Of a stretch of DNA of 64,000 nucleotides, positions 33,360 to 64,000 are shown piece by piece. This DNA is from Antedon mediterranea (Eukaryota; Animalia; Echinodermata), in the NCBI RefSeq assembly GCF_964355755.1, contig NC_092673.1:10478001-10542000 (forward strand), read 5' to 3'. The notes under the pieces were generated by a model. The model was not told where the DNA came from. It ran no database searches and saw only the letters and a program-made list of their open reading frames with translations. The position numbers and the translations under genes were made by a program. Positions within the stretch are counted from its first letter, which is position 1. Each line of letters opens with the position of its first letter.

Positions 33360-33865
33360 ATATACACGTTGTAGTGATGTATCGTTACATGTGCTGTACT
33401 ATTTCAATCGACTAGGACGGTGATAGTTTCAACAAAGTATTACATCGCAATGTTTTACTGTGTTTAGTGGTATATTATTTGTAAAACATGAAAGCAATTA
33501 ATATTTCGTTACTAAATGGATAAAGAATATATTTTAACATTGTTCCTCTTTGCACCCATCCTCTTCCCCATCCCTCAACCCTAATGTTACATACAAAACA
33601 CAAATTAAGTTTGTTTAAATTTTACTTAAACAATTGGTCTTATTTTGTGACAAGTTTCTCTTTCGGAAGTAATAGGGTGCTAATTTTAGTTGAGTACATA
33701 AATCACAGTGTCTATTTATTCGTTCCTGTACACGACATGTATTATTGTCCTGCGGTACGTACATTTGAAATCGCCAGTTTTTTAACGCTGAAATTATTAT
33801 GTATTCGAGAACCATCTGTGGGCACGACCTAGATGGTACGCGAGCGAAGCGAGCGTACCATCTAG
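33360..33865 (+). mobile_element. Non-autonomous Helitron-like 3' segment (copy 1)
   Basis: Ends with the hairpin GGTACGCGAGCGAAGCGAGCGTACC followed by ATCTAG|T. It is an inverted homolog of 34373-34890; the 5' boundary is approximate. Confidence 0.65.
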
Positions 33866-34372
33866 TGTTGATAATTTGATAACAAGTAATGTTCAATTGG
33901 AAAAAACTCCATTTTAAAGGAAAACGCAAGCACCAAAAAGTGCGTGGCATTTCTGTGCAAATAATAGATTATTGTCTTTATGTAATGTTAGATGACGCCG
34001 ATACGCGGAGCTCCACAGATAATGTGACTAGGCGCGGTTAATGCGCTAACATCTAACATAAATTCAAAACAATTAGCCCCGCGAAGGTGTTGTTGATACA
34101 CATAATAGTAAAACAATAGGACACAACTTCATTTAAAGTGCTTTATTTGCACGTTAGAATGTTTGAATATTATTCCACAATTTCATATGTTATTGAATTT
34201 ACTATAGACCTAATAAGTAACAATATAAATAGCTTTACTACATAACATATATTAATATTATTACAGTACATTTGTATTTGTTTTGCCTATTTCAACTTCA
34301 ATAATTGATACAGTATTTGTTTGAATACGTTAAATAAATTTATATTGCGCTTAGAATGGTGAATTATTATAA

Positions 34373-34890
34373 CTAGATGGTACGCTCGCTTCGCTCGCGT
34401 ACCATCTAGGTCGTGCCCACAGATGGTTCTCGAATACACAGTAATTTCAGCGTAACAAAACTGGCGATTTCAAATGTACGTGCCGCAGGACTATTGTCGT
34501 TTACAGAAACGAATAAATAGACACGATGATTTATGTAGTCAACTAAAATTAGCACCCCGGGAATTACTTCCGAAGGAGAAACTTATCACAAAATGAGTCC
34601 AAATTTTTGATTTGGACTCATTTAAAGAAACCCAATTTGTGTTTTGTATGGGTTTTTTTTATATTAGGGTTGAGGGATGGGAAAGCGGATAGGTACAAAG
34701 AGGAACAATTTTTAAATATATTCTTTATCCACTCAGTAACGAAATATTGTTTTCGTGTTTTATAGGCCTATAAATAATATACCTCTAAATACAGTAAAAC
34801 ATTTGCGATTTAATACTTTGTTAAAACTGTCACTGTCATAATCGATTGAAATATTAAAGTACATGTCACGATACACCACTACGACGTTTA
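34373..34890 (-). mobile_element. Non-autonomous Helitron-like 3' segment (copy 2, tail-to-tail with copy 1)
   Basis: The same hairpin plus CTAG|T on the minus strand. The body has diverged from copy 1. Confidence 0.65.
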
Positions 34891-37800
34891 TTTTATTGGT
34901 AATTATTAATTAATACAAACGTTGAGAAGGAACTGTCAGTATAAAGTTTATTTGTATATAATAATGTGTTTATATATCTAACAGTAGATCCTATCCACAA
35001 TCTCAGTAATAAAGTTTATCTGTATATATTTTTACAGTACGAACATTCACAGTAAGAAATGTTCGATTCAAATGAGGACTAAAAATAGTTACAGTATTGT
35101 CAAAGTATTGCAAGTTTATTCTCAAAGGGCCCATATATTTACCTACCGTATGTGTTAAATCAAGGGCTCATAAATTTACCTACTTGTGCTAAACCAAACT
35201 CTGGCAGACTGAGAGATTGGGATGTTCCATTCATCGCAAATCAATACATTTGTATAATCATATATTAAATCTATCAAAATAGTATTTTTTAAAGAAAATC
35301 GGCCTGTCTTCAACATTATGATGGTGTACTCTAGCTGTTCAACCGGTTTTCAGCTATTAAAAACAATTATCGTAGGAGGAGATAGGAAAATGCGAAGCCT
35401 CCTCGCATTTTTGTGGCGGGTATTTTTCAAGATGGACATCCATTAGACAGTGTATACCACGATCGGAAAACACCCCGATTTGGGGCAAATCGTTGAACCT
35501 AAATTCGTTTTAATCGTCAATAACTAATTATCTAACTTAATTTAATTAGTAAACAGGGTTACATCAGGTGGTTAAAATCAGTACCGAAAGTACGAACCAA
35601 CTTTATATACCATCGAGTAAAAATTCTAGAAGTAAGGCGCGATTTACCGAATTTTGCCCTTACGTAAATTTATATATAGATAAACATTATTTTTATAAAA
35701 ACTTAACTAAAAAATACGTTTATTCTTTGATTTTATTCTTAAACATATATTGGTTGGTTTCATTTATTTTTTTTCTCCATCATGGTTTCATAGGCTTTAC
35801 TGTACGTTTATAATACTGCATTGGCTTGTTGTAGCTGCGGCGGTATTGGCGTCCCATAGAAAATGTTGGCGGCCGTTTCAGTCGGCGGCCGTTTCGGTCA
35901 CACACCTTATTCAGTGTTGGTGCTCTTGATGAAAATGCATTTTTTAAATCATATATAAAACTGTAATGTTAAAAAAATGGTCAACAAAATTAGTATCAAT
36001 GGTCCTATAGTAAAGTTATATTACAATTTAGTTTTAGGCCTGAAACAACATTTCAATTAATTAGATGAAATAAATAATCGAATAAATCATAATATATATT
36101 AAAGTCAGAAGCCTATAAAATCCAAATATAATAGGCCTATTAAACAGCTGAAGATTGTGCCCCTGGGAAAATACTAATAAAACTAATAATTGCGTGGCTT
36201 AAAACACTTTTTAAAACTGCAAAATGGAAAATAAAACATCTTTATAAAGTAATAAGACTGGTGAAGAATGGTTCCCTAAAAACATTAAAAGAAAATTATA
36301 TTATTTAGAAGAACACAACAATCTTACCTTAAGCCAGTTTTTGCCTTTAGTTGTTTTGGTAAATTTTATAACCTTGCCTAACTGTTCACCGTCAGAATGC
36401 TTTATTGCCCTAGTGTTATTAATTATTAGATAAGCAATGTTGTCTTCCTCTACACAAAACCTCCAGTCCATTTTATCAAATGCGATAACGAAGTGATCAC
36501 AAACAATGTTGGGCGACGAGTGACGCGCTTTCACACTGTTACGATCTTTTATTTGGGCCAGGGAGTTATTAGTCAACTCCCTGTTTGGGCATTGTCCACA
36601 TTGTTTATACTAAAGCTACAGATCAGCAGGAAGAAAAACTCAAGTGCAAATCGTATTTCATATCGATAACGAGTTTTATTTGCACGATAGAGATCGATAA
36701 AATCTGCAAGTAATATATAATCATTTTCATAGAGTAACTTATATATTTTAATCTACTTATACTGTAGTAAAATAATTTTTACCATTTCCAACTAATTCAT
36801 ATTGGGCTCCCGTAATTTCACCTATGCTACACTGCATATATATATATCAACTATGTAAATACTTTATTTGCACATAACATAATAACAACATGATATAAAA
36901 AACATATGACCAAAAAATAAATAAATCATATATTCAAAAGTTTAGCGCCTCTAAAGGAAACATCAAATTGAAGTAAGAAATCCTGATATTTTAACTAAAT
37001 TAAAATTCTTGAATTAAATTCCTTTTTTATAAGCAGTTGTATATTGTTTTGTATAATTGTAAATTTATATTATATTTATAAAATAAGAAATTTCGGTTAC
37101 AAATATGCTTTTTTTTAAATACAGTATTACAGAGATGTTTTATTATTTGAAGTTTAGGTTGTTGGTGGGGTAGCCAATGAACATAAAATTATTGTATTTT
37201 GACTATTTCCATTTTGATTGGTCAATTTTGTCGTTAAAAACACGTCCGTATAAATTGTGCGTCTCTTTTGAATAACCTACTGTGTAATATTGAAGCTGTT
37301 TATAATTGTTTACTATGAATCATTAAAATATAAACATACGCCTATTTAAAATGAACTTAGAATAGTTATTAAATACATAAGACAAGCTAGTGATCAATAC
37401 TTTATTTTCTTGTAAAAAAATATGAATGTGATGATTATATCGCGTATTATAAGATAAAAGCGTTGATAGTATTCCAGATATCAACTTGAAAAATATAGAA
37501 CAAAAAAAAACAATTTTAAGCATTCATTGATCTAAACAAAAATTGTCCACTTTTTATGTACAAAAAAACAAAAGTCATATCGGATAGACCATCATCAAAT
37601 GTTCACGTATCTCTGAAATATTGTGTCGAACGAAAAGATTATTTCAATTTCAAAGTTGGCCTGTCAAACTAGGCGTTAGAAAAATAAATTAAACTAATAT
37701 TTTCATAAAATTATATTGGACAAATAAATGATATGCACATTTAATAATACAATTTACTTTTTGCATGCGCATGATATTATTATATAATGAATTTTTCAAT

Positions 37801-44130: not shown

Positions 44131-46069
44131 ATTTGGATTTATATTGAAAATTATCTATTTTTTTCAACCCACTAAGGCTGTCTCTCTCTCTCTCTAATTC
44201 TGTTAATATTATATATAAATGAACTTACAAAAGATTTCAAAGAGAAAGAGATTAATATTTTTTATTGATAAAAAGACTCATTCTTGGCCGACGATATAAT
44301 TCTCATTGGAAATAGTGAAAATGATCTACAATCATTATTGAAAGCATCAATTTAGAACCAAATTTAAAATGTTATAATTTTGAAAAATAATATGCAGGCC
44401 TGATTGTAACCAACCACCAACGCATTAACAATCAAATGAAATAGCCAATCGGTAACAAATTCATAGACGAAGCCAACATGTATAGCATGCACACAGAAAT
44501 TACAAAAACACAAGCCATATAGATGAAGGAAAAGGATCGAACAGAATTATTTTATTAAATTTTCATGCAGTCAAACAACGCAACAAAGCAACCTGGGGAT
44601 TTCCTTTCTTGAGTGCTAAGCACTATCGAATTGGTTATCTATACTGCATTTCAATCGTAAAACAATAAAAATACATAAGATATAATAAATTGTGTGAACA
44701 ATCATTTAAATATACAGATAACATGGTTCGTGTGTACAGACAATTAAAGATGATATACGATAAAATTAGGAATATCTTGCCAAACATGGGGACAATTTTT
44801 ATACAAGGAATAATTAAAAGAATTGGTTCTTTAATATTATTAATTATTCTTTAACAATTGTGTTCTGTTTATGTAGTTATCTGTATGAAAAAAAGCGCCA
44901 TCTATAGCGGACGTATAAGTAGCGATAATTTTGACCAATCAAATTGGGATTCTTTCAAACTCATTGTTTCCTAAAAAAAATCCCAAGCTCTGAACTTACC
45001 ACTCATCGTATTACTATAAGGATATTCATTTCTGAAAAATAGGCCAAGTTTACATGAAGGATGATTTGATCATAATAGGGGAAGTGGTTTGATGATAGAA
45101 TCTAAAGTTTATATAAACTTTTTTTTTAAGATTTAATGTGGCGTACAGTTAATTATGTTATGAATTTTTTTGTATCTCTTTATCAAAAGCACAGTCTCAA
45201 TGAGGGAGATGTGCAACAAGAGTAAATAAACATAATTATATTTTTAAAAAAATATACATAAAAACCATTAAAAAAAATATTTAAAAAGTATAATTTGTCA
45301 TGACAAACCACTGACAAATTTGATATCTTCAAATATAAAACAAAACGTAAAAAAACAAAGCATTATTAAAAGTAAACTGAGAAAGATTAAAAACTAGAAA
45401 TGTTACTGTTACTCTATATTCATGCACTACGCATATTTTAGTTTACATTTCTATGGCTTTAGGTTAAATCAGGGATCAACCCAAGTTTTCGGCATGTATT
45501 GAATATAGGACTATTCCATTATTATTTATAGGGGTGTTAGTCAATATGTTGGGTTAGGTGTGCCAGGCTTGTTGAGGCTTCTATTGTTCGTGTCATTGTG
45601 CCAATTGTTTTGTATTTCACTGTGTTTGATAAAAACAAACAAAAAACTGCTGCTGTAGTTAGCCTATAGCTTTTATTATGTGTCTGTAAATTATATCGTA
45701 TTTTACACTATATACAGTAGCCTATAGGCCCTAACATGTTTTTTTACTCAACAGTTAAATCAAGTAGCCTCTACAAATAACAAGAAAAGATCAAGAAAAA
45801 GATTCATATACATTTTAATCTTATTTAATTTATGTTTTAATTTATATAAAATATCCAATTTATGTTTTAATTTATATAAATACATCCATGTTTGGTTTTT
45901 TTTCTCAACAGTTGCAAATAGCCTCTACAAACAACAAGAAAAAAATCGATAGATCGAAAGATACATTCTTCAAACTTTATTCAAATATAAGGCACAAGAA
46001 CTTTAACATTATTTAATAAGGCACAAGGAACATATACTATTTTAACTTACTTAATCTGTTTAATTTATA

Positions 46070-46300
46070 TTATGCCATATCTTTCTCGCCACATAAATTC
46101 GTCAAGGTATTCCGGTAACCATTCCCGTTTACACCTATTCTTTTTAACTTTAATTTTTCACGATTCCAGTAGGATTCTATGTTTTGAGTGTGGACTCCTG
46201 TTATTGGATCAACAACATTCTTACTGTGGTTTACTGTTAAGTGTCCATCTACCACATCCAGGTCCTGTACTCTGGAATAAACCTTCCATTTATTTGATGG
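46070..46300 (-). pseudogene. Merlin/IS1595(ISXO2)-family transposase C-terminal fragment
   Basis: HLTVNHSKNVVDPITGVHTQNIESYWN motif; frameshifted and truncated. Confidence 0.85.
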
Positions 46301-46399
46301 TCATTTTAATATAAGGCATGAAATAAGATTATTGGCATGTATTTATTTTGTTTGTATGGTATTTATATTTTTGTAATATTTTGTTTGGTTGGAATTCAC

Positions 46400-46909
46400 T
46401 GAATCTTTTACAGTAATTTATTAATAACGGTACCTGTGATTTTACATTACCATTGACCATTGAAATCGACAGTAATTTTAATGTAGTTTTACAGTTATTT
46501 ATCAACATTATTCTACATTAATGGTAGACCACTTCCTTTGAAATCGACAGTAATTTTACGTAGTTTTATGGTACCCGTGATTTTACGTTATTGTTGACAA
46601 ACAGACTTTCAGATTAACAGTAATTATACTGTAGTAATTTATTAGAAACGGTACCTGTGATTTTACGTTATAGTTGACATCCGACTTTCAAGTTAACAGT
46701 AATTTGTAGTTTTACAGTAATTTATTTTCAACAGTACCTGTGATTCTACATTACGGTAGACAACCGAGTTTATGACCAACAGTAATAATTTACTGTAGTT
46801 TTACAGTAATTTATTTTCAACAGTACCTGTAATTCTACATTACGGTAAATTACTGGCGTCCAGATTGCCAGTAATTTACAGTTTTTTTATAAGAATTTTT
46901 TTAACAGTG
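46400..46909. mobile_element. EnSpm/CACTA-type non-autonomous element end with internal tandem repeats
   Basis: Terminus TTTTTAACAGTG|TA (reverse complement CACTGTTAAAAA), subterminal hairpin AAATTACTGGC...GCCAGTAATTT, and degenerate repeats containing GTACCTGTGATTTTAC. The other end was not found. Confidence 0.55.
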
Positions 46910-47835
46910 TAGGCCCTATATATCCTGTACTGGGGAAGGGTTAGTGTGTGTTGCATGAGAGAAAGTTCTGCAATTTTATTTCTGACTATTTTAGTTTTTG
47001 TGTCAGGATCAGCTGGAGAGAGAACCTCACGAACATTGCTAACTCATTGAGTTGAACCAAACATGACACTACTAAATAACACTTAAAACTGGGTCGATGA
47101 AATAAAACATATATACCTTCAATTAAATATGTTACACAATGTATGTTTTGCTTAATCTTATGCCTTTAAGTGTACTGAATTTGTTAAAGTCATAAACTGT
47201 TGAGAAAAAAACAAACATGGATGTATTTATATAAATTGTTTTTCTGGCTGTTTTACTTTATCGTTTTGATTGAGCTTTTCGCTTTTTTTTTTGTATCTCT
47301 ATTGAGATCCAGCCACTGATACCCACATCATTGTCGTTGTTTCATTAATTTTCCTTTGGATTTATATAAATTAAAACATAAATTAAATAAGTTGTATATG
47401 TTTTCTCCTTATTGTGAATAACGTTTGAATGTATTTTTTCTTGTTATTTGTAAGAGGCTATATAACTTGATTCGGCTGTTGAGAAAAAAAAAACATATAA
47501 TAATATTACATGAAATGTAAAATAAAACATGATAATATGATTTAACTGTTGACGGTAAAAAACATGTTAGGGCCTATAGGCTATATAAATATAGTGTAAA
47601 ATACGATATAATTTACAGACACATAGGCTAACTATAGCAGCAGTTTTTTGTTTGTTTTATCAAACACAGTGAAATACAAAACAATTGGCACAATGACACG
47701 AACAATAGAAGCCTCAACAAGCCTGACACACCCAACCCAACATATTGACTAACACCCCTATAAATAATAATGGAATAGTCCTATATTCAATACATGCCGA
47801 AAACTCAGGTTTAAAGTAGTACAGTATTGTAATTG

Positions 47836-47890: not shown

Positions 47891-47984
47891 TTCGTTCGCG
47901 CTTTTTCCAAAGATTAGATGCGAATGACGGTTAAATGAACATAAAACCGTATATTGTTCATTTCTGTTATCAATTTGTTAAATC

Positions 47985-50900
47985 ATGAACATGATAAGCG
48001 ACTCTGAGCTAATGCTTCAATACTCAAGCGAAGACGATGCATATTTCTACGATAATAACATTATGAATATCACATTTTCTGATGATGGCACGACAGAACA
48101 CCCTGTTCCAACTGCTGAGCGTATGCTATACTATTTTTCAAGTGAAGACGATGAAGAAGGCCTAGGCCTAGTCCTAGGAGTAGATGATACAGAAGGGTCG
48201 CCTACTGGGATTAGGCCTACAACAATGAATGTTCATACCTAGGTAGTGTTGTGAACGGCGCCCGCTGGGTAAACAGACCACCCCGCCGACCGAACGAGGG
48301 CGTCGCCCCGATAGCTTGATTTGCATACAGGGGGTATGTAAATGTTAACGTGGGACCTCGACGCCGCCCGAGCTGGGCTATTCGAAGCAGGAACCAATGA
48401 GAAACGGACACAACCGGAATTGACCAAGATATTTGGATTTACTGCTTACGGATACCTGTGTGATTTAGGACAAGCGGGACTGTTAAGGTAAGCCTAGTAG
48501 CTTTCATTACCAGGCCATTCCAGCACCGACCTAAAATCACAACATTGGCGCTGCGAGCAAAAGCTCGGAAATCTTTTTTTTTGGTGGGGAGGCGGGTGCC
48601 TTGATTGCCAGCTGGCATTCTTAACGTGATCGGGTTGATTGCGAGGTATTTCGTCCTCTGCTGAAACTATTAACTTATTGTACTTACGGTGCATTTGTTA
48701 GTTTATTGAAGTTGGTATATTTATTGAAGGTACAACATACCGGTAAAGTTAATCACGCAGTATTGTGGCATTTGGATACTTGCTGATTAGCGTATCGACG
48801 GGGTAGTCGATGCATACCGGGAGTTGTATTTATTTTGCTATAGTTGAAGGATTAGTGGGCAGTTTACTAGGCCGTATCACCTGGTGGGATACTAGGCGTG
48901 GCCGTTGAACTGAGTGGCACCACTAATTTTAAATTTGATTGTTTTTTATTGATAACATCTTTTTCGTCCGTCAGTCAGGTTTTTCATCTTGAGAAATTAT
49001 ATTGGCTGTGCGTATTATTGTGTTAACCTCAGAGTGGCATTATCGCTCTCCTTTCTTTGCATCGGGGGAAGGTTTAGTGGTAAGTGTTGTTAAACTGTAT
49101 TGACGTCTTTTTGAATAATCTAGTTGTTTCTCATTGCAGGTTTGCTGGTGAAATATTTTATTATAATGATTTGCATCTCCAACAACCATTTTGCAATATT
49201 GTGTGTGTGTTACTGCATTGACGATATTTTATTCTATTGTTGGGCCTGTAATTTTTATTACGTCTGGCGGTATTTTAATTTGTATCGTACTCTTTGCTTG
49301 ATAACATCTGTTATCTCACACTGCAGCTAGTTTTACCATACTGAAGATCGTAAAGTGTTACTACAACTTTTATTCCGTGCCAGTCTGTTTTCTTCTGGAA
49401 AGCTTGAAGACTGTTCACGTGATTTGTGACTTCAACTTCACACGCTGATTTTCACTGCCTTTCTGTGGAGGGGAGTGGTCTGGTGATCAGTGTTCGTTGA
49501 GCATTACCAAGATCTGGATTTGAAGTATCGTCATCATTTGAATGCTGTGCAATTGGTGAATGTATCACAAATGTTTTAATAGTTTTATGCCCATTTTAAT
49601 ATTCCAGGCATTGGTATTGTATGGCATTTTACATTCCTAGTTTATACACAGTATTCATCTTAAACCGGACAATTACTAGTGGCACAACATACCTTTAGAT
49701 ACATTTTAATGAAAGTCTTTGACCTCTGGCAATACTTTTATACTTTTTAAGTGTATCGTATGTTTTAAAGGATGCCTCATGTTGCAATAAATTTCTGGAC
49801 AGAGCCAGATCTTGTCCATCTACTAGGAAAGAGAGCTAGGAAAATTACTGATTGGAGGTCCAAATTTGGAAATATTAGAGCCTGTGACTTAGAATATTTA
49901 ACTGGAATCAAGTGCTTGTCATCCAAAACGACTCGCTGGGATTTCACACCGAATCCTCAATTAGTGAGTAGTTGGGTTCAGAACACTAGCACTCCTCAGC
50001 TGTTCCATGCAGCACAAGTTCCATTTGGAACTTATTCCGGTGATTTACCTGGTGGTAGTTTCTCATGGAGACACACCAGTACCAACCAACCTAGTTCTGA
50101 CCACAGAGAAAAGACAGATTCAGGTTGTAGGAATACTCACTATAGGTATGCAACCAAAGCAGAATGTCAACCAATATCTGAACTGTTAGCTTTAGACTCT
50201 AGTCTTAATGTACGGGGTCACCATTGCACTAAAGGTAGTAAAACCTCAAAAACTAGATCTGTGTCTAAGCTTTGTAGATTACTGACAGAGGATTGTTTCA
50301 GTGACTCTTCTAGTAGCTCTAGTCTTATGGACTCCAGTTCTAGTAATGATGAGAGTTGTACAAGTGACGAAGATAGTGATCAGGATAGGGCTTATGGTAA
50401 ATATTCTACGAGTGTTCAATCTAAAAGACGACACTCGCATAGGCATTCCCAACGATCACAAAAACTATTGAGACAAAAAGACATTCCCACGTCTCTAACT
50501 TTTAATGGCTGGGATGATGACTGGTATCTTTTTAAGAAACGGTTCAGATCTTTCGCAAAGGCGCAGAACCTTACCACCGGGGATAGTAAAAATGCCCTTT
50601 TTTGGTGTATGGAGGGACCTGCGGCAAAGTTCTTAACCAATCTTTTAAGGATGGAGCCAACATTAGACTTCAAAGAGATGATGGATGTCCTCAGTGTACG
50701 TTTCGGAGACGGTGAGCGGTTTCTAAAACAAGAACTAATAACCAGCCTATCCTGGTGGGGTCAACCCTGCATTTCAACCAGCTGATTTACATGCAAATGA
50801 GCAAACTGGACAGGATATTCAAGCGTGAGACCCCTTTCACAACACACCTCCCCATTCTAAAAGGGAAGCATTCCACCTTTCTCACACTAGCTTGAATACA

Positions 50901-53900
50901 CCGAGGAAACTCCCTGAAATGTGGGTTCTGTACGTCTTCTTCTACATCATCATGGTAAGTGTGAAGCTCAGGAGGCAATGTGATGTACATTTGTTGAACT
51001 CAGGTTGATCTCGGAAGTTGCTGCAGATGGTAGGTATAGTGATGCAGGAGCTGATATCTGTACATCAGTATGCCTCCTGAGCTTCACACTTACCATGATG
51101 ATGTAGAAGAAGACGTACAGAACCCACATTTCAGGGAGTTTCCTCGGTGTATTCAAGCTAGTGTGAGAAAGGTGGAATGCTTCCCTTTTAGAATGGGGAG
51201 GTGTGTTGTGAAAGGGGTCTCACGCTTGAATATCCTGTCCAGTTTGCTCATTTGCATGTAAATCAGCTGGTTGAAATGCAGGGTTGACCCCACCAGGATA
51301 GGCTGGTTATTAGTTCTTGTTTTTTTCAGGTGCAGCAGAAATAAGACGGTGGTTTTAAATCATGACAAGCTGGCTGATTTTAATTTACCTCCTCTTTCTT
51401 CACCTACAGATCCGGATGCAGGACCGTTGTATTGTCTATGTCGCCAGCCCTGGGCCGGCTCGTTTATGATACAATGTGACTATTGCGAGGTGTGGTACCA
51501 CGGTGCATGTGTGAATATTGCACTATCTGAGGCCTGGGACATTGACTTATATCGATGTGCGGACTGCAAGTCCTCAGTTAACAATTAAGTACTCACGTTT
51601 ACCTTCTCTTCTTCCTCAGATATGGATCAGTTACCGTTTGCTGACGGAAGTGATACGGAGATTTCCGAGATGGAGGAGGATGTGTTCTTGGCTAGTCCGG
51701 GGGTACAGGAGGAACTGACGGTGGCTGGGAATACGGGAGGGGCTTGCCCGGCGGCGAGCACCCCAGCCAAGGGGAAACCAATCTGCCATCTGATGACCCC
51801 GAAAGAAGAGGCAGCGGCTGGGGATACGAGAGGGGCTTGCCCGGTGGTGAGCACCCCAGCCGAGCGGAAACTAAAATGCCATCTGGGATGTGGTCCAGTG
51901 AGCAACATACGGGTCCACGTCACGAAGACGCATGCCCCGGCATGTTTCCGGCCACTGGAACGGAGTTCTTGGCGGAGGGCACGAGTGCAGTGGCGGGCAC
52001 TCACCAGTTTGGCAGCGGAGGGCCTTGGTAAAGGCAGAACACCAGAGGACCTGAGATGTCTCCTGAACGCCCAGCACCTTATGGGGGATGGCACTGATGT
52101 CCTACCCCCGGATAGGAAAACTCGTAGTGCCATCTTTATGCTGACACGGGTGATTGGGGGAAAGAGGCCCCCGCCTCTCACAATAGCTCCGGTTATCAGT
52201 CACCCGTCGGCTCTCATACACTGGCGCTGTGTGATCGCTCTCATCGCCTCTTTTGGTGAGGAGTTGGTGAAGGAGTGTGGTCGTCGGGCTGAGGAGGAGG
52301 AGCCGGCAGTGGACCAGATCGTCAAAAAGTCGACAAAGAGAAGGGCGGCAGAGGGAGAACATGGAGAGCGACCGACCAAGCGCGATGCCCCGGCACCGAA
52401 GGATGGTAGATCAGTGGCGGCGCCACCGATTGTGCGGGGTACATCGGCTTCGCTTGGTTCGGCACCCAAAGTGTTCGATGCTTGTTTTCACCTGGACCGG
52501 TTGCAGAGGGACCTGCAGCTTTCCAGACGAGCGGACCTCTGGGACGTGGAGCGAGCGGTGCGGGTGAGGAGTAGAACACAGCCTGTGGAAGTGGTAGGCG
52601 GGATTGCCCTGTTTGGCGATCCAACCACTTACCCCACCGAGCGGGAGATTGGTGGACTGGCGAGGAACGGCTGTGCGGTGGGCTTGGGAGTGGCTCCTGG
52701 CTACTCGCCGACAACGGTCCAATTCGATAGGCTCCTGGCCTTAGCCCGAACTCGAGATGTTCGAGTAATCGGGAGAGTGGGATTGGACCATTCGGCCCCG
52801 CCTACAGATTGGCCGAGACAAGATCTGCTGCTAAAGAGGGTGTTGGGTCGTTGCTTGGACGGCCGCCACCACCGCATCCTGTGTCTTGAAGTCTCTGGAG
52901 TTCAAGGCGATGTCACTGGGGAGGAGTGCCACTATCGCGTCTTGGACATCTTGCGTCTAAGTCGTGTGTCGAAGGAACAGCGTCTGCTTCTGGCAGACTA
53001 CGCTTCCACGGAAGCCGTAGCCACCGCCTACCTTCGACATTTCCCCAGGACATACTTAATTAGTGTGACCAGTCGAGTGACGGGCTTTACGGCCGATCAA
53101 CGCAAGGGCCTGCGTTTCATCGCTACCAATGAAGATCGGCGATTGCTGATGGGGTCAAACGGACCGGATTATCCTCCTGCCGGATACCCAGTTGGAGCAC
53201 CTCATCTGCTGTGGGCGACCGCCGTCGCCGTGGGACAGGTGCTCGACCGGAGCCCCGGGCAGGTCACTGATCTGACATGGAAGAACGGTCGAGATCTCCT
53301 TTGAGCCCCTGGCTCACCCACAACCAGAAGTTTTCAGTTTTCCAGAAGTTTTCCGTTTCAAAAGAACATGGTTCTGTTTTACATTTATTTTCATTTATAT
53401 CTTTCAGGTATCTAGGGAAGCGGAGGACGGTGCTACAGGCATGTCCCACGGCTAGTGACTACCTGAAGGGATCGTTGGAAGCGGTCTACACAGCTACGGG
53501 TATTGGGTATTTTTTCACGTACGAAAATCACCCGGTTTACCCCCGAGGTGGATCCAGGACGGGGTGCCCGCTTTTCAAACACGGGAGGAGTGTTGTGAAC
53601 GGCGCCCGCTGGGTAAACAGACCACCCCGCCGACCGAACGAGGGCGTCGCCCCGATAGCTTGATTTGCATACAGGGGGTATGTAAATGTTAACGTGGGAC
53701 CTCGACGCCGCCCGAGCTGGGCTATTCGAAGCAGGAACCAAGGAGAAACGGACACAACCGGAATTGACCAAGATATTTGGATTTACTGCTTACGGATACC
53801 TATGTGATTTAGGACAAGCGGGACTGTTAAGGTAAGCCTAGTAGCTTTCATTACCAGGCCATTCCAGCACCGACCTAAAATCACAACAGTAGGCCTAGGC

Positions 53901-56900
53901 CTAGAGACCTAGTTATTTACTACTAGTACTAGGCCCTAGGCCTGGGCCTAGTAAATATTACTTATTACTAAGCCTAGCTAGAGATAGGCTCTAGCCTAGG
54001 CCTATTCCTATGAGAATTTTAGTATGTAGTACTGTACTGTGTTTGGGATAGAAAAAACTTAATAGGGGTAATCAACCATTTGCCAGGTACACTCAAAATG
54101 TGTGCCGGCCCCCTTAATAGGCCTATATCCACTTGTTTATGGGAAAGGGTGTCCCAAAGAAGAGATCAAACATACACATTTTCAATAATATTTTACCATG
54201 TGTGGCATATAATTAATTATTTAAAATAACGATAGTGAGGCATTTGATGAATAGGCGTCACGCTTGCCATATGATTGTTTGTTGCCTACATTCCTTGTTG
54301 TTTTATCATGCTAATTACTTCCTCATTTACATACAACCTGTCCTATTGGTATATAAGTACTCTAAGCCTAGGCGTTGTTTTCTGTTCTGGTGGAAGATGA
54401 GAATAGTTTCTCAAAACATATCAATTTTTAGGCAGTTTGCCTATTCATATGCTTCACTATCATTATTTTAACTCAAAATTTCGGTGGAATCATTCTTGAT
54501 TTAATATCTAATTAATTATGTATGATAATAATTTAATCAAATTGCAAATTTTCTGATTACTATACAGAATCTGTTTGTCAAGTAACATCAACACACAGCA
54601 CTGCTTATCCAACTGAGCGTATGCTTTACTATTCTTCAAGTGAAGATGATGAAGTAGGCCTAATTGTACGTGGGAACGGTTCAATTCAATCAATCAATAA
54701 TGGATGTTCTGCTGTTGATGATACAGAAGGGTCACCTACTGGGATTTCGACTACCGAAGTTCCTCCAGCAGCAAAGAGAAAAGCATGGGAGGTTTCTACA
54801 ACAGATGTCGATACTTCTGATGATGACATACCTACAGAGTCAGCAGGTCAGTAACTTTAACAATACAATGACATGTTATGTAGTTATTTACTAGGTTAGA
54901 GTAGAGGCCGCCTCTAGGCCTATCCCTATGTTTTTATGGGCCCGATCTGGGAGGTAACAATATCGTATTCGATTGGGACATTTATCGTTGAGTATAGTTT
55001 TGTTTTTGTTGATTTACCTTTCCGTACTTATAACACAATTGTGTGCGTTGAGATTGTTCTTAACAAAGAAGTTTGCATTGTTAACGTTTTCTATTTCACT
55101 GGACCACCTCTAGTTACGTTCAGTATAACCCCTATTAAGGCTTCAGGAACAAAATAATGTCCCCTTGGCAGGGGTTTTTTACTGGAAAAAAAAAATTATT
55201 TTGATATGTAAAATAAATAATTGATCTGGAATCATAAAATTAAAAATTGAAATTAGCAGTCCCTTTTAAACAATAAATGTATCTAATTATTTCTATGATA
55301 ATAGTTTAAATTGCACATTTTCTGATTACAACATAGACTCTGTTTGTCTAGTAACAACTACCAAAGTTCCTCCAGCAGCAGAGAGAAAAGCATGGGAGGT
55401 TTCTACAACAGATGTCGATACTTCCGATGTCGATACTTCCGATGATGACATATCAGCAGGTCAGTAGCAATAACATTAACCATGAGCTTTTGCTAACCTT
55501 TCTTAGTAGGGCTCCTACCAACTTTATACAAAACTTCATCTAGGCTTGGGTAGGGAATTACCTTTTAAGCAGCCAGCCTAATAATACTACTACTACTACT
55601 ACTACTAGCCAGTAGATATTAGTATCCTCTATAGAGGCTAGTTTATTTATTTAGATTTACTTCCCTACTACACCTTTAAATCATTAGCATACTTAATAAT
55701 TACAAAGGTGCATTCTTCAGAAATAACAAAATACAACAAAAACCTCATTATTAATAACGATGAGAATAATGGTGAAAAAAAAGGATAAATGGTAATAACC
55801 TCCCATAAAGCCTATAGCTCCTCGATCAAAATATTATCTTCCACTATCCAAAATTTGAAAATGTCTGCTATCAATCACCAGTTACCCCAAATGAAGAATT
55901 ACTGTACATGTATGTTGCATAGGCTGCTATAAATATTAAACTACTATATTTTTATTTAGCCTGCAAGGAGGCCTAGAGACTGTAGAAACTAATTACCTTA
56001 ATTCATCTGGATCAAGTGATGATGAGATTAAAATCTCTAATCACACAAGTAAGCGTAGTGGTAAGTTTGATATGTCATTAATTTTTAAAACTACTTTTAT
56101 TAAATAGTGCTTGATGTTGATGGTTGTGCTGTACCTAAAAGATATGGAAATTGCTGGTTGTTTCCATTTGTGTCTGATTCTATGGTCAGGTTCTAATGTT
56201 ATGTCTGTATGGTATGTAAATAGGTACGACTGTCCAATGAACAAGGCACCTGCACAACCTGTAATTGAACACTCGAAAAGTGAAATTGAATTATCTGAAC
56301 CGAAAAAAAAATTGTTTGTCAAAGAATTAAAAGTATCTATATATTAATGCGAATTAGTCACCTAGTTTTACGTAACCTCCAAAACTTCTGAAACCGTATT
56401 GACTGATCACATTTTCTGCAATTGGTACCATATAATTGTTATTTTGTTTGTTTGTTTTTTTTGCCAATGGATAATGTAAGTTTATTCTTTCTGTAGAAAA
56501 AAGGAAAAGGAATCACCTACAGCCAATACACAACTTGTATTTGACCTGCTGTTGTGCATTAATGTGCATTGGTATGCTAAATTTTAGAGAAATAAAACAA
56601 ACAAGGAAAGCTTTTCAAGCAATGACCGAATATGAACAACGCTGTTGGATCCTTAAATATTTCAATGAACATCTCAGCACATCCGGAGGTGCCACCAAAA
56701 TCGGTCTACTAGTTGGTGCTAACAAAGTTTGTGCAAAAGCATGGATGTTAGTAAATGGTATTGGCCGGTCAACTTTTTACAAAATAAGGAAGCAAGCTAT
56801 TGGTAATTAATTGTTTAGTTTTACAGTACATTTTACATTATTTAATTTTACATGCTGTTAATATTACTTTTAATGTATGTGTTTTAATGTTGCTGAAACG

Positions 56901-59900
56901 GAAAGATTACTGTGACTGTGTGAAGATTACTTTCCATTATACTTATAGTCGTATTATACAGGGCCATAGCCAGGATCTGACGAGGAGTGGAGAATAACTT
57001 TTTTTTAAATGAATAGAATGCATTTGATTATTGTTTAATTATTTTTACACAATAAAATCAATATGCTTAACACTATGTTAGAAAGATAATGCAAAATGAT
57101 CATAAGTCATTAATCAATGGATTAAACCAAACAATAATAAAATAGTACAGTATTTGAAATTCCTAATATTTGAAATTTACATTTTATTTCTTTTCAGAAG
57201 GATGCTGTTATCTTTTACCACCCAACTTCACCAGAAAGATGGTATATAGCAATTCAACTCAACAGTGTCGGGCTTGGTTTATTAAATTTTGTAATGAATA
57301 CGGTGATCAAATGCCAACTAATGGACAAATCCATCTACCATCAACGCTTACCAAACATGATGTGTACATGCATATGAAAGATGAGTTTGAGCTAAGAAAT
57401 GAAGATGTGTGTGCATTAGCGACATTCTACAAGTTTTGGTGTGTTGAATTCAAGCATATTGTAATACCCGAGGTATGTTTACGTTTTTACACTTATTATC
57501 GTTTGTACCAACAAATACCATTCACTTCAATGGACAAAATCCATGTCATCTTCATTGACTGAAGTATTTTTTAACGTATTTTTATAAATTCACTTCAATG
57601 TTATGCAGAAAGTCCTGTAGGTTCAATTTTCATTCATAATAAAATACTGGAAAAACATACTGTACAATCCAGATGCATGTATGATGGGCCTCACAACTCC
57701 TTCCATACATTCACTATATTGAATGCAAAATTTGTTTAATTTTATATTTTTACGTGCTGTATTTTTTCAATTTTTTTTAATAGGAAAATCGTTTTGCAAA
57801 ATGCAGCAAATGCACCAGAATTAAATTTGAGCTGCACAAGACAAATCAAAAGCAAAAACGGCAAATACTAATGATGAAGAGAGAGAAACATTTACGAAAA
57901 CAAAAGTAAGTATGCCTACCTATTTTGTGTACAAAACCAGTAGGTTAAACCTTTCAACAAGAAATTCTGTTGAACTTGTATACCCGGTATTACCATAGAT
58001 AGGAAAAATAATTATTGCTTCCACTGTATACCTCCTCTATAGTATTATTAGTGTTTTTAAAAATAATTCTAACTTAATAAAATTAAGAGTGATTGAAATA
58101 AAACAGAAAATAACTGGGGAAAAATGGTAGAAAATGAAAATAATTATTGTGTATGAACAATGAATGAATAAAAGTGGTTGTAAACAAAAAAAGAGAAAAG
58201 ATAAACAAAATCATTATTATACAAAAAACCTTTACATTTAATCAATAATTGTAATAGATTAGAAGTAAAGCATTGTCTCATCTTGTCATCGGCTAATAGA
58301 TAACATATAACTAAACAAAACAAAAATTTATTATTAAATGCAAAATAAAACTATAAACATATGATTTGAATTTTTCAGTATTGAACGTCAAAAGTACTAT
58401 AAACATATGCAGAAAGCAAGACAGAATCCCACCAAGTATTTGTCAATAATTATCGATGGAATGGACCAAAGCAAGACTGATTTACCATCTTTTGCTTGCG
58501 AATCAAAAGAAACGTCGAAGATGTGGAAACTAGCCACACATGTAACTGGTGTTCTGGTACATGGGCGACATGGGCACTGCTTCATTGACCTAAAGCAGTT
58601 TCCACATGACTCAAACCTAACCTGCAACATTATACTGAAGGTGCTGTCAGAGATACAACCTCTACCACCAGTCTTATATCTGCAGTTGGACAATAGCGGA
58701 AAGGATAATAAAAACAGATTTGTTTTTGCCCTATGTGCTCTTCTTGTAGAGTTAAAGATTTTTCGAAAGGTAAATGACTATAAATTTATAAATGATATAT
58801 AAATAATAAAACAGTATACACAGTGCACTTTAAAGAACCCAGTTCATCATTCATTTACCCTGTTCTTGTTCACCACAAAATATCCCCTGTGTTGGGTGAT
58901 TTCCACCTGCCTAATAGGACAGTAAATAATTTACTATTGGTAATTATCTAAAGACATAAAATATTCAATAACATTCTAGTCTAACTAGATGAGGAAAAAA
59001 TGGAAATATACTAAAAATGTATTTTTTTTATGTTGCTTTGAAAAGTTTTAATTTTAAATCATTACTTCTTTTACTCTTTCAGATAAAGATTGGGTTTTTA
59101 ATGGTGGGTCACACTCACGAGGATATTGACCAATTATTTTCATGTGTGGCCAAATACCTGAACAAATATAGAGCATCTACACTTGATCATCTTCGAAGTG
59201 CTGTTGAAAACTCGTACAAAAAGTTGCCGATTACATCAAGTATCATTTCCTATCTGCATGACATTAAGAACTGGTTAGTACCATACATGCAAGACATACG
59301 TTACCACAGCAAACCACACCAGTTTAAGTTTGTTTTGGCTCAAACCGGAAAATGCATCATGTCCTATAAGAACTGGTCAACGGATTGTACTTGGTGTGAA
59401 TGTGCAAGAGAAATGGACACACTTCCATATTTGCTCAAGGAAAGCCCTGCTGATATACCAGTGTTGTGTACTCCTGATTTTAGTAATGCAGATATACCAA
59501 AGTTAAAAAAAAGTCTGGCGTCTGTTGCAAATTTTTTGCGAATAGAAGAACGTGACTGGTGGGAGGAATTTTTAAATAATATAGAAGACATCACAGAAGG
59601 TATGTACTGTACTACATTGCATGTGTGTTGTTTCACCATTTTACACATATATTTTTTGGTTAACAAGAGAATTTTGATTTTAGTATAGATTCAGCAGCTA
59701 TAACAAAATTCAAAATACTCCACACAACTATGTTGGGTCACATTCACCAATGCATGCTTCCACTGATCATTTTATGTGAGAACCTAAAATTATCAAATAA
59801 CATGAACGATATCTAGTGGAGTACACTGGAGAAACATGCCTCCTGATTAATTCATAAGATAAAATCAATCAATCAGCATCTGATTAGCATGGTGCGCAAT

Positions 59901-60651
59901 GTATTGGCCCAGCTTTTATGCAACAAACACCTCGGCATAAATATATCATGAATGTATATTATTTACTTTTTAAAACTAATACGTACTCTTTTTTTTTAAG
60001 GAAATGAACAGCGATTTTTGCTCCATGACATCATTTTTAATGACAACAATGCAAGCCCTATCAGGGAGGAATCTGATGGAAACGAGACAGACATTAGTGA
60101 CTCAGATAATGAAAATGAAATAAGACCGGTATGATAAAGATATTATAGATTTTCAAAATTACATCTTTGAAACATGTAATGCAACTTAGTTTAAAGCAGT
60201 GCTTATATTTGGAATATGATCTCATAATCGCATCAAGCAAATGCATCAACGAAAATTCTATATTTTTAGGGTTGTAAGAAAAATGATTATGACTTTTCTA
60301 TGCTTTCTCCCACACTACAAGGTACACATTGGTAAATTTTCGAAGCGTAAGCCACCACAGCAACTCGATGTTGGTGCTATGGTAGCAACAGCTTTAAGGA
60401 GATATCCCACAGAATGGCCTCAGATAGGCAAAATATTCAGCATAAATAACAATGAGGTAGAAGTAGTGTGGTACACTGGAACGTATACTTCCCGGTTTGT
60501 TCTGTGTGAAAAAGATGGACAAGAATGGCGAGAAATAATATCGAAGGAGGAGGTGATAAGTATATTTAATTTAACACCAACTAGTAGATTGCCTACCAAT
60601 GTTATTGTTAAATTAAAAGAATTAAGAGATGACTTTTTAAATGAAAGTTAA
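47985..60651 (+). CDS. Multi-exon DDD (RNase H-fold) transposase with Sola1-like motifs, acidic repetitive N-terminus and a C-terminal Tudor/SH3-like barrel; 5' part interrupted by an LTR element
   Basis: Open, phase-compatible core exons at 56497-56802, 57198-57472, 57784-57905, 58379-58769, 59083-59599, 60001-60128 and 60322-60651. Motifs: FAKCSKC..H, SIIIDGMDQ, LYLQLDNSGKDNKN, FLMVGHTHEDIDQLFS. The upstream acidic exons (47985-~48242, 54568-54846, 55337-55459, ~55968-56060) are less certain, and exon 1 reaches a TAG just before its apparent donor. Confidence 0.8.
48247..48544 (+). repeat. 5' LTR
   Basis: TGTTGTGA...TCACAACA; contains a strong splice donor AAG|GTAAG at 48487/48488. Confidence 0.96.
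48546..48559 (+). promoter_or_regulatory. Primer-binding site, likely tRNA-Ser
   Basis: TGGCGCTGCGAGCA lies 1 nt after the LTR and resembles the complement of a tRNA-Ser 3' end. Confidence 0.7.
49772..50785 (+). CDS. gag: Truncated Gag with N-terminal ComEA-like helix-hairpin-helix domain
   Basis: N-terminus VAINFWTEPDL..LLGKRARKITDWRSKFGNI..DLEYLTGI. Capsid-like segment TFNGWDDDWYLFKKRF...ALFWCMEGPAAKF...VLSVRFG. Homology is inferred to end at ~50724, where the inverted repeat begins. Confidence 0.75.
   Translation: MPHVAINFWTEPDLVHLLGKRARKITDWRSKFGNIRACDLEYLTGIKCLSSKTTRWDFTPNPQLVSSWVQNTSTPQLFHAAQVPFGTYSGDLPGGSFSWRHTSTNQPSSDHREKTDSGCRNTHYRYATKAECQPISELLALDSSLNVRGHHCTKGSKTSKTRSVSKLCRLLTEDCFSDSSSSSSLMDSSSSNDESCTSDEDSDQDRAYGKYSTSVQSKRRHSHRHSQRSQKLLRQKDIPTSLTFNGWDDDWYLFKKRFRSFAKAQNLTTGDSKNALFWCMEGPAAKFLTNLLRMEPTLDFKEMMDVLSVRFGDGERFLKQELITSLSWWGQPCISTS
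50725..51323. repeat. 253-bp apparently perfect inverted repeat (50725-50977 / 51071-51323) with 93-bp spacer
   Basis: The arms read as exact reverse complements, and the ORF track gives the same peptide on opposite strands. Confidence 0.95.
51324..51588 (+). pseudogene. Residual integrase C-terminus carrying a PHD finger
   Basis: KTVVLNHDKL resembles the end of the GPY/F module. It is followed by [28 protein letters not shown]...YRCADC, a complete C4HC3 pattern. Confidence 0.85.
51622..53304 (+). CDS. 560-aa accessory ORF with C-terminal TatD-like (amidohydrolase TIM-barrel) domain, metal ligands substituted
   Basis: VFDACFHLD, GLGVAP, IGRVGLDHS and RLLMGSNGPDYPP align by eye to TatD DxHxH, GxHP, GExGLD and ETDxP. 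A polypyrimidine-CAG acceptor lies at 51619. Confidence 0.85.
   Translation: MDQLPFADGSDTEISEMEEDVFLASPGVQEELTVAGNTGGACPAASTPAKGKPICHLMTPKEEAAAGDTRGACPVVSTPAERKLKCHLGCGPVSNIRVHVTKTHAPACFRPLERSSWRRARVQWRALTSLAAEGLGKGRTPEDLRCLLNAQHLMGDGTDVLPPDRKTRSAIFMLTRVIGGKRPPPLTIAPVISHPSALIHWRCVIALIASFGEELVKECGRRAEEEEPAVDQIVKKSTKRRAAEGEHGERPTKRDAPAPKDGRSVAAPPIVRGTSASLGSAPKVFDACFHLDRLQRDLQLSRRADLWDVERAVRVRSRTQPVEVVGGIALFGDPTTYPTEREIGGLARNGCAVGLGVAPGYSPTTVQFDRLLALARTRDVRVIGRVGLDHSAPPTDWPRQDLLLKRVLGRCLDGRHHRILCLEVSGVQGDVTGEECHYRVLDILRLSRVSKEQRLLLADYASTEAVATAYLRHFPRTYLISVTSRVTGFTADQRKGLRFIATNEDRRLLMGSNGPDYPPAGYPVGAPHLLWATAVAVGQVLDRSPGQVTDLTWKNGRDLL
53591..53888 (+). repeat. 3' LTR preceded by polypurine tract GGGAGGAG
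   Basis: Direct copy of 48247-48544. Confidence 0.96.
58813..58962 (+). mobile_element. Degenerate copy of the SINE at 16044-16314, in a transposase intron
   Basis: Shares TTTAAAGAACCCAGTTCAT, ATAGGACAGT and CTAAAGACATAAAATA. Confidence 0.7.
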
Positions 60652-61785: not shown

Positions 61786-64000
61786 TCTCTCTCTCTCGCT
61801 GGTCTATCTCTCTCTCGCTGATCTATCTCTCTCTCGCTGATCTATCTCTCACTCGCTGATCTATCTCTCTCTCGCTGATCTATCTCTCTCCCTCTCGCTG
61901 ATCTATCTCTCTCTGTCGCTGATCTATCTCTCTCTGTCGCTGATCTATCTCTCTCTGTCGCTGATCTATCTCTCTCTGTCGCTGATCTATCTCCCTCTGT
62001 CGCTGATCTATCTCTCTCTGTCGCTGATCTATCTCTCTCTGTCGCTGATCTATCTCTCTATCTCTCTCTCGTTGATCTATCTCTCTCGCTGATCTATCTC
62101 TCTCTCGCTGATCTATCTCTCTCTCGCTGATCTATTTCCCTCTCGCTGATCTATTTCTCTCTCGCTGATCTATCTCACTCTCGCTGATCTATCTCACTCT
62201 CGCTGATCTATCTCTCTCTCTCGCTGATCTATCTCTCTCTCTCGCTGATCTATCTCTCTCTCGCTGATCTATCTCTCACTCGCTGATCTATCTCTCTCTC
62301 GCTGATCTATCTCTCTCTAGCTGATCTATCTCTCTCTCGCTGATCTATCTCTCTCTCGCTGATCTATCTCTCTCGCAGATATATCTCTCTCTCACTGATC
62401 TATCTCTCTCTCGCTGATCTACCTCTCTCTCGCTGATCTATCTCTCTCTCGCTGATCTATCTCTCTCTCGCTGATCTATCTCTCTCTCGCTGATCTAACT
62501 CTCTCGCTGATCTATCTCTCTCTCGCTGATCTATCTCTTTCTCGCTGATCTATCTCTCTCTCGCTGATCTATCTCTCTCTCGCTGATCTATCTCTCTCTC
62601 GCTGATCTATCTCTCACTCGCTGATCTATCTCTCACTCTCTGATCTATCTCTCTCTCGCTGATCTATTTCTCTCTCGCTGATCTATCTCTCTCGTTGATC
62701 TGTCTCTCTCTCACTGATCTATCTCTCTCTCTCGCTGATCTATCTCGCTCGCTGATCTATCTCTCTCTCGCTGATCTATCTCTCTCTCGCTGATCTATCT
62801 CTCTCTCTCGCTGATCTATCTCTCTCTCGCTGATCTATCTCTCTCTCGCTGATCTATCTCTCTCTCGCTGATCTATCTCTCTCTCGCCGATCTATTTCTC
62901 TCTCGCTGATCTATCTCTCTCTCGCTGATCTATATCTCTCTCGCTGATCTATCTCTCTCTCGCTGATCTTTCTCTCTCTCTGGCTGATCTATCTCTCTCT
63001 CTCGCTGATCTATCTCTCTCGCTGATCTATCTCTCTCTCGCTGATCTATCTCTCTCTCTCGCTGATCTATCTCTCTCGCTGATCTATCTTTCTCTCGCTG
63101 ATCTATCTCTCTCTCTCTCGCGCTGATCTATCTCTCTCTCGCTGATCTATCTCTCTCTCGCTGATCTATCTCTCTCTCGCTGATCTATCTCCCTCGCTGT
63201 TCTATCTCTCTCTAGTTGATCTATCTCTCTCTCGCTGATCTATCTCTCTCTCACTGATCTATCTCTCTCTCGCTGATCTATCTCTCTCTCGCTGATCTAT
63301 CTCTCTCTCGCTGATCTTTCTCTCTCTCTTGCTGATCTATCACTCTCTCTCTCTCGCTGATCTATCTCTCTCTCGCGCTGATCTATCTCTCTCTCTCTCT
63401 CGCTGATCTATCTCTATCTCTCACTGATGTATCTCTCTCTCTCGCTGATCTATCTCTCTCTCTCGCTGATCTATCTCTAGCTCTCTGTCGCTGATCTATC
63501 TCTAGCTCTCTCTCGCTGATCTATCTCTCTCGGTCGCTGATCTATCTCTCTCTGTCGCTGATCTATCTCTCTCTGTCGCTGATCTATCTCTCTCTGTCGC
63601 TGATCTATCTCCCTCTGTCGCTGATCTATCTCTCTCTGTCGCTGATCTATCTCTCTCTGTCGCTGATCTATCTCTCTATCTCTCCATCGCTGATCTATCT
63701 CTCTCGCTGATCTATCTCTCTCGCTGATCTATCTCTCTCTCGCTGACCTATCTCTCTCTCGCTGATCTAGCTCCCTCTCGCTGATCTATTTCTCTCTCGC
63801 TGATCTATCTCTCTCTCGCTGATCTATCTCTCTCGCTGATCTATCTCTCTCTCGCTGATCTATCTCTCTCTCTCGCTGATCTATCTCTCTCTCGCTGATC
63901 TATCTCTCACTCGCTGATCTATCTCTCTCTCGCTGATCTATCTCTCTCTCTCTCTCGCTGATCTATCTCTCTCTCGCTGATCTATCTCTCTCTGTCGCTG
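61786..64000. repeat. 19-bp satellite array (continued to window end)
   Basis: Same monomer, orientation and variants as the left arrays. Confidence 0.98.

Follow-up and report, generated by a model that had tools for sequence, protein, structure and literature searches.

Open reading frames (ORFs) other than env have been described in Gypsy retrotransposons with long terminal repeats (LTRs), including a bdelloid 3'-5' exonuclease (PMC5408684), and pseudonucleases are known to have arisen repeatedly among host genes (PMC8097288). Here, the third ORF (ORF3) of a Gypsy-type element is described that was found in a 64,000-nt stretch of the genome of the feather star Antedon mediterranea (NC_092673.1, positions 10,478,001 to 10,542,000; hereafter "the window", in which all coordinates are given). 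The element occupies 48247-53888, and the 560-residue product of its ORF3 is designated P0001. On balance, we slightly favour the reading that ORF3 is a third, non-envelope gene of a Gypsy family, a functional pseudo-nuclease that would serve the element by binding nucleic acid without cutting it and that is probably expressed from a spliced message. To what was known, this study adds a measurement of selection on a disarmed TatD barrel, an intact sister, a count of repeated losses and a conserved N-terminal domain.

The closest described systems resemble ORF3 in part. The ORF3s of the bdelloid rotifer elements Juno and Vesta (a DEDDy 3'-5' exonuclease and a GDSL esterase; PMC5408684) share with it the position of a third ORF after pol, the lack of a transmembrane segment and a 3'-5' exonuclease origin, and ORF3s are said in the same source to be typically expressed from spliced messages. 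The DEDDy fold of the rotifer proteins retains its catalytic residues, whereas the window ORF3 has a TatD TIM barrel whose residues are lost, a further zinc-finger and helical domain, and purifying selection among copies. The mark of a bdelloid-type ORF3, a DEDDy or SGNH domain whose catalytic residues are intact, was not found in it; the likeness is one of position, not of family. Group II (HxH) TatD proteins (E. coli YcfH and YjjV, S. aureus 6l25/2gzx, human TATDN2 and TATDN3; PMC10085689, PMC4176340) are matched by a PF01026 score above the cut-off, by structural Z scores of 25-28 and by the HxH-H-E-H-H-E-D set in 103 of 130 relatives. Unlike them, ORF3 has seven of eight site residues replaced, carries a family-specific N-domain and is borne by a retrotransposon. 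As with the env ORF3 of errantiviruses and retroviruses, it lies between integrase and the 3' LTR and has its own ATG just past a strong acceptor. However, no signal peptide, transmembrane segment, furin-like site (RxK/RR) or N-glycosylation motif (NxS/T) was detected in it (highest 19-residue hydropathy, 1.42; N-terminal maximum, -0.15), and homology to env was rejected because these membrane features are absent. Repeated, independent loss of catalytic residues with retention of the fold has also been described for fungal Dis3/RNase II-like pseudonucleases (PMC8097288), Maelstrom and EXD1 (via PMC5408684); RNA binding has been demonstrated for those proteins, which are encoded by host genes, whereas ORF3 is mobile and its binding is a proposal. 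A literature search, with Repbase Reports and subscription journals outside its scope (a Repbase entry may mention TatD in such elements), turned up no article that describes TatD in a retrotransposon, and "TatD" is absent from the main text of PMC2836005, PMC5408684 and PMC6238403.

ORF3 is open for 560 amino acids (aa), from an ATG at 51622 to a stop at 53304. A chance ORF was rejected, as the probability of 560 open codons at the local base composition is ~9e-10. Pfam TatD_DNase (PF01026) spans aa 285-559 (E 1.8e-8; 34.6 bits, cut-off 27); a phmmer search of PDB sequences with P0001 returned no matches. The closest named proteins are from A. mediterranea (98%) and Anneissia japonica, both feather stars. 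An AlphaFold model, built from an input alignment of 108 sequences, mostly relatives with intact sites, features a complete barrel over aa 281-560 with a block predicted local distance difference test (pLDDT) score of 88-97. When compared with S. aureus TatD (6l25), the barrel model gave a Z of 28.3 and a root-mean-square deviation of 2.6 over 245 residues. The top 14 structure matches had Z scores of 24.6-28.3 (13 titled TatD family, and one yeast "uncharacterized amidohydrolase"), and the next scored 17.6. The disordered N-terminus of ORF3 contains a 70-bp internal duplication (51723-51792 and 51816-51885, 87% identical).

Active-site residues were mapped by alignment with intact relatives, using E. 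coli TatD numbering (PMC4176340). Seven of the eight metal-binding/catalytic residues are replaced, including all three acids. The first His of the HxH pair is C288, and the second is kept as H290; the positions of H62, E91, H127 and H152 are occupied by A358, R385, E423 and A458, respectively, and those of E201 and D203 by G511 and N513. A preliminary description of the locus, made from the DNA letters, had reported a 560-aa ORF at these coordinates in which TatD fold motifs persist while nearly all of the ligands are replaced, and had proposed a structure prediction; the alignment, the Pfam match and the predicted barrel bear it out. Five of the seven replaced codons sit two to three bases from any codon of the canonical residue, and this multi-base distance means that they are not fresh decay of the window copy. 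Recent pseudogene decay of this copy was rejected accordingly, the multi-base changes being common to copies. Among positions at least 85% conserved in the 103 intact relatives, P0001 retains one of eight site residues compared to 21 of 31 others (Fisher p 0.013); the residue loss is aimed at the active site. The barrel is basic (net +7; intact relatives have a median of -1 and a 90th percentile of +5).

In E. coli TatD, the single alanine mutants E91A, E201A and D203A each lack exonuclease activity, and that of H62A is much reduced (PMC4176340); the equivalents of these four residues are all replaced in ORF3. In human TATDN1, all tested site mutants had residual activity and D222A had little effect (PMC10085689). 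Given this residual activity, loss of activity in ORF3 is something that we infer, although strongly, from the seven changes. By its sequence, ORF3 is a TatD-fold homolog and not an active TatD, and its protein very probably has no nuclease activity.

Copies of the family were compared over the barrel in four public runs from three coded organisms. Of 125 variant places, the 40 best supported were classified: 28 were synonymous and 12 nonsynonymous, with 13.1 synonymous expected from site composition (p 1.6e-6, omega ~0.21). When CpG changes were set aside, 22 of 32 were synonymous (p 5e-5). None of these best 40 restores a site residue and none is a stop; the dN/dS comparison among copies that the preliminary description had suggested thus came out well below neutrality. 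The best-supported barrel indel is in-frame (3 nt). Upstream of the barrel, the eight variants listed (four synonymous, four nonsynonymous) are too few to judge. Across 52526-53266, the main contigs of run X1 showed zero differences at the six downstream site codons, the same six residues are found in the A. mediterranea protein P0004, and the HxH pair is likewise missing from a loose end that belongs to a more distant subfamily. Among family copies, the barrel is under purifying selection.

A profile search of 1.84 billion representatives yielded 964 matches at E 0.001 and 135 at 1e-30, and the best 150 of these matches were considered. Of 153 proteins examined, 152 contain the barrel and 130 cover all site columns. 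All eight site residues are kept in 103 of these 130, including the closest crinoid relative, P0002 from Anneissia, whose barrel is ~54% identical to that of ORF3. Eleven keep four or fewer (P0001 and P0004 among them), and all three acids are missing only in P0001 and P0004. Names were looked up for 30 proteins; the relatives make up a large family from marine invertebrates, and the named ones come from crinoids, a sea star, scallops, an oyster, abalones and lucinid-clam symbiont metagenome-assembled genome (MAG) records; one Haliotis relative is annotated "putative deoxyribonuclease TATDN2". The MAG records (P0019, P0129 and P0163, filed under Candidatus Thiodiazotropha) probably represent DNA of the clam host that was binned with the symbiont. 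In two overlapping sets of 40 and 34 relatives, Pfam scans found TatD and an occasional zinc-knuckle or C2H2, and no fusions to reverse transcriptase or integrase. We infer that the relatives are element-borne from the architecture that they share with ORF3 and from the several copies per species. When metagenome, genome and viral contigs were searched with the family alignment, the matches listed were at the level of the barrel only (20-33% identity) and apparently ordinary cellular TatD.

A tree was calculated with FastTree from 141 family barrels and 15 outgroups (cellular-type TatD loci; the tree includes no animal TATDN1/2/3 sequence). Site columns were removed, and proteins with fewer than 225 aligned residues were omitted. 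All family members group in a single clade (support 0.84), which has a long stem. Inside the crinoid clade (1.0), P0001 and P0004 are sister to P0002 (eight of eight residues kept) and P0006, with a support of 0.875. Strongly degraded members occur at six places on the tree, four with good local support and two weakly placed. The well-supported ones are P0001/P0004 beside the intact P0002, P0059 among intact relatives, P0115 beside the intact P0050, and the trio P0067/P0087/P0129. From these placements, the dead-site state is derived and repeated, and it is a minority in the family; ORF3 would descend from an enzyme whose site was intact and would be a pseudo-nuclease kept under selection. A 1102-aa relative (P0118/P0159/P0160, from Ostrea edulis and Logan contigs) keeps three of the eight site residues. 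Its length is equal in three cluster members, and it occurs on up to 14 contigs of ~6 kb; it is a good second case of a retained dead barrel.

A second domain was predicted with confidence over aa 82-230 (mean pLDDT 92); like the PHD finger and the fold-back inversion described below, it had escaped the preliminary description. It includes a C2H2-like finger with the putative zinc ligands C86, C90, H99 and H104. The domain is present in 116 of 153 family proteins, the remainder being mostly short fragments, and the zinc motif is found in 95 of the 107 that are at least 450 aa long. Of 16 strongly conserved columns of this domain, P0001 keeps 13, with one of the misses due to C86 being shifted by a single column, and its four putative ligands are all retained. 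The best Z for the domain model against 48,161 chains was 3.4, Foldseek at E 0.001 found no match in PDB or BFVD, and Atlas feature scores were 0.77 or less. The domain is therefore one without a structural match in these collections, which is not proof of a new fold. Basic clusters were found in the N-parts or linkers of 30 of 99 relatives, compared to 8.8 in shuffles, an enrichment that hints at nuclear import.

An acceptor at 51619 lies 2 nt before the ORF3 ATG, with a branch-like ACTCAC at 51591. On both strands of the element, no other YAG is preceded by a stretch in which 16 or more of 17 bases are pyrimidines; four such sites occur on both strands of 25 kb of flanking DNA. The acceptor, proposed in the preliminary description and the best such site in the element, looks real. 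The donor named there, AAG/GTAAGC at 48488 in the LTR and upstream of the primer-binding site (PBS), was confirmed as a site, but GTG/GTAAGT at 49080 in the leader is equally good, so that 48488 is one of two candidates. If the 48488 donor is used, the message would lack the PBS; the effect of three ATGs in the LTR upstream of it depends on the transcription start. Two gene models on different A. mediterranea contigs begin at the ORF3 Met. The layout of acceptor and ATG fits a spliced subgenomic message. In run X2 (guessed to be RNA, with contigs over the whole element), neither a 48487-51620 nor a 49079-51620 joint was among the joints listed (15 of 37), a result that is uninformative on expression. 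An AG at 51329 was also considered and is probably not a splice site, as it lies within the integrase-tail coding sequence. Past ORF3, a further acceptor-like site is located at 53407 (in 53393-53452), and the P0004 gene model ends with a peptide from there; an alternative splice form that ends in a different C-terminus is possible.

Several observations weigh against a selected, nucleic acid-binding pseudo-nuclease. Ten of the 31 conserved non-ligand positions are also changed in P0001, several of them adjoining the site; intact relatives retain 29 of 31 on average and at least 24, compared to 21 in P0001. The stem branch to P0001/P0004 is long (0.55, vs. ~0.22 to P0002), and together with the changed positions it fits some relaxation. 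The basic charge is common to the intact-site P0002 (+5) and hence is not a new feature, and the predicted fold leans on an alignment dominated by intact relatives. The omega estimate draws on 40 of 125 variants, which are not independent events on a tree and in which subfamilies are mixed. P0001 fails both nuclear-signal patterns tried and has a weaker basic stretch only. In the runs, derivatives with nearly the whole of ORF3 deleted are frequent (joints 51645-53416 and 51629-53215), and some subfamilies have frameshifting indels. The three gene models annotated in A. mediterranea are each partial, and the relatives may include decayed copies or host genes. After insertion, copies are expected to break. 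The preliminary description had also read retention of the ORF in the window copy as a sign of function, with nucleic-acid binding, a decoy or an anti-silencing factor as candidate roles. That argument fails: the insertion has had too little time to decay (0.7% LTR divergence), and derivatives without the ORF are common, so retention in this copy says nothing on function.

If ORF3 is indeed such a pseudo-nuclease, a separate ORF3 message would likely arise by joining of the LTR or leader donor to the acceptor at 51619. The product would be a soluble two-domain protein, very probably devoid of nuclease activity, and it would very likely act in trans, because deletion of the ORF in cis is tolerated. 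Cellular TatD favours single-stranded DNA and RNA (PMC4176340), and TATDN2 resolves R-loops (PMC10711561). The ancestral protein, probably a 3'-5' exonuclease, may have trimmed or cleared single-stranded DNA or RNA ends in the element cycle; the disarmed barrel may now hold and shield such ends, with docking by the zinc-finger domain. This last step is the weakest of the proposal and is put forward tentatively, as somewhat doubtful.

Among the alternatives, the barrel could be a protein-binding decoy or scaffold, which we regard as unlikely. ORF3 would then be an anti-silencing or anti-sensing factor whose zinc finger finds chromatin or the element, while the dead barrel associates with a partner from the host or is a competitor of an active TatD of host or element. 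Such a role would suit the loss of the site at six tree places and the retention of the N-domain in intact and most dead members (among 15 listed proteins that have a degraded site or belong to the same clusters, P0003 omitted, 12 carry the zinc motif). The other dead barrels are mostly neutral or acidic (net -8 to +2), a poor fit to DNA binding, although the ORF3 barrel itself is basic. Inactive DEDD derivatives act in piRNA biogenesis (PMC5408684).

It is more unlikely still that the barrel is a slowly decaying passenger, conserved enough for folding and stability while only the N-domain matters. The long stem branch, the retention of 21 of 31 non-ligand conserved residues (below the intact minimum of 24) and the abundance of ORF-less derivatives would be in keeping with this, and bdelloid ORF3 variation is reported to be mostly neutral within genomes (PMC5408684). 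However, the omega of ~0.2 was measured inside the barrel, and the best-supported indel there preserves the frame. A C-terminal domain without a role could moreover be lost by one stop, yet none was seen among the best 40 of 125 variants. A rewired site, in which C288, H290, E423, D459 and N513 bind metal anew for another hydrolase activity, is very improbable: H290 is kept, acidic or thiol side chains stand at strand ends, and human TATDN1 site mutants retain residual activity, with D222A of little effect (PMC10085689), but an Arg (R385) stands in place of the bridging Glu and seven residues have changed together. Sequence alone cannot tell these three alternatives apart.

The features of the element are as follows.

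48243-48246, no strand: target-site duplication, left copy (GTAG, 4 bp), paired with the right copy
48247-48544, + strand: 5' LTR, 298 bp, TG...CA, containing the candidate donor AAG/GTAAGC at 48488
48546-48559, + strand: PBS with a TGG start (TGGCGC...), one base 3' of the 5' LTR
49077-49085, + strand: second candidate donor, GTG/GTAAGT, in the leader; the intron would start at 49080
49772-50735, + strand: gag-like ORF, 5' part, ending at the rearrangement; sub-threshold DUF1759 match
50725-51323, no strand: inverted repeat of 265 bp (arms 50725-50989 and 51059-51323, 99%), a fold-back inversion where the end of gag and pol are missing
51305-51588, + strand: integrase C-terminus remnant with a terminal PHD finger (~51430-51570); frameshift near 51336 in the window copy
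51591-51619, + strand: branch-like ACTCAC, polypyrimidine tract (16/17) and CAG acceptor
51622-53304, + strand: ORF3, 560 aa, with a disordered N-terminus (1-81), zinc-finger and helical domain, basic linker and predicted TatD-fold pseudo-nuclease
51865-52311, + strand: aa 82-230 of ORF3, C2H2-like finger and helical bundle with an ALIHW motif; confident model, no structural match
52462-53301, + strand: aa 281-560 of ORF3, TatD TIM barrel, seven of eight active-site residues replaced
53583-53590, + strand: polypurine tract, 5' of the 3' LTR
53591-53888, + strand: 3' LTR, 298 bp
53889-53892, no strand: target-site duplication, right copy (GTAG)

The LTRs are identical at 296 of 298 positions (two mismatches, 0.7% divergence). 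The window insertion is young, and reverse transcriptase and the integrase core are missing from it, in agreement with the preliminary description of a recently inserted element that has lost pol. Direct LTRs with TG...CA, a PBS, a polypurine tract and a short target duplication, as in Ty3/Gypsy elements, are all present. From 5' to 3', the interior holds a long leader, part of the gag-like ORF, the inverted repeat, the integrase end with its PHD finger (Pfam PHD, E 2.7e-10), and ORF3. The gag-like ORF matched only DUF1759 in Pfam, below the cut-off (E 0.017-0.077), and had no significant match in PDB. A fusion of integrase to TatD in the window copy was rejected, as the PHD frame stops at 51588 and ORF3 has its own acceptor and ATG.

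The integrase tail is 51% identical to the C-terminus of the Anneissia integrase P0165 (named K02A2.6-like), in which Integrase_H2C2, rve, a weak MLVIN_C and PHD were found; the PHD finger at the integrase end is common to both integrases. Chromoviruses carry a chromodomain at this position. Loose ends at 51305 in runs X1, X6 and X10 read as the same WKGP motif as the integrase tail. The P0165 match and these ends place an integrase with a GPY/F-type tail at the 3' end of pol, and GPY/F is a hallmark of Gypsy and ERV integrases (PMC2836005). On these features, the element is a Gypsy-type LTR retrotransposon, present here as a pol-less copy. Some copies in other runs lack the PHD finger and have the ORF3 acceptor: two deletion joints end at 51598 and 51604, with the AG and most of the tract kept.

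Other copies diverge from the window sequence after 50735, and a contig of one run carries ~1.7 kb of other DNA between 50735 and 50974. Sequencing depth was low across the fold-back inversion (50725-51323) in all four runs; the inversion looks like a template switch at short microhomology. Copies in X1, X6 and X10 share the LTR, leader and 3' part, depart at 49310/49311 and rejoin at 51305, and therefore subfamilies that differ in their middle parts have their ends and ORF3 in common.

The surrounding window is AT-rich, animal-type DNA. A 19-bp satellite occupies 1-22560 (~1150 copies) and 61788-63993 (~110 copies). Downstream of the element, and perhaps enclosing it (47982-60651), is a multi-exon DUF7869 gene with Pfam matches at 58407-58802 (E 2e-36) and 59017-59688 (8e-33); acidic repeat units stand on either side of the insertion (48139 and 54637). 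This gene may itself belong to a DNA transposon. Long inverted-repeat elements at 31038-33312 (arms of 806 bp), 33362-34891 (~89-133, nested) and 45478-47811 (168 bp) are probably non-autonomous DNA transposons.

The family addresses an open question, namely the role of non-envelope third genes in LTR retrotransposons. The intact-site and dead-site proteins of sister crinoid lineages form a natural matched pair that can separate cutting from binding without engineering, and the family offers a well-predicted, conserved 150-residue domain without a structural match. Public annotations file relatives as host or bacterial-symbiont TatD, YcfH or TATDN2 genes, and gene-family counts would be inflated if these are element-borne. 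In a broader view, which we hold with low confidence, the family would represent a large, undescribed Gypsy clade of marine invertebrates with an accessory gene that joins an undescribed zinc-finger/helical domain to TatD. The nuclease would repeatedly have been made into a selected pseudo-enzyme, a counter-defence factor that, in the manner of accessory genes in complex retroviruses, may shield reverse transcripts or block silencing or sensing by the host.

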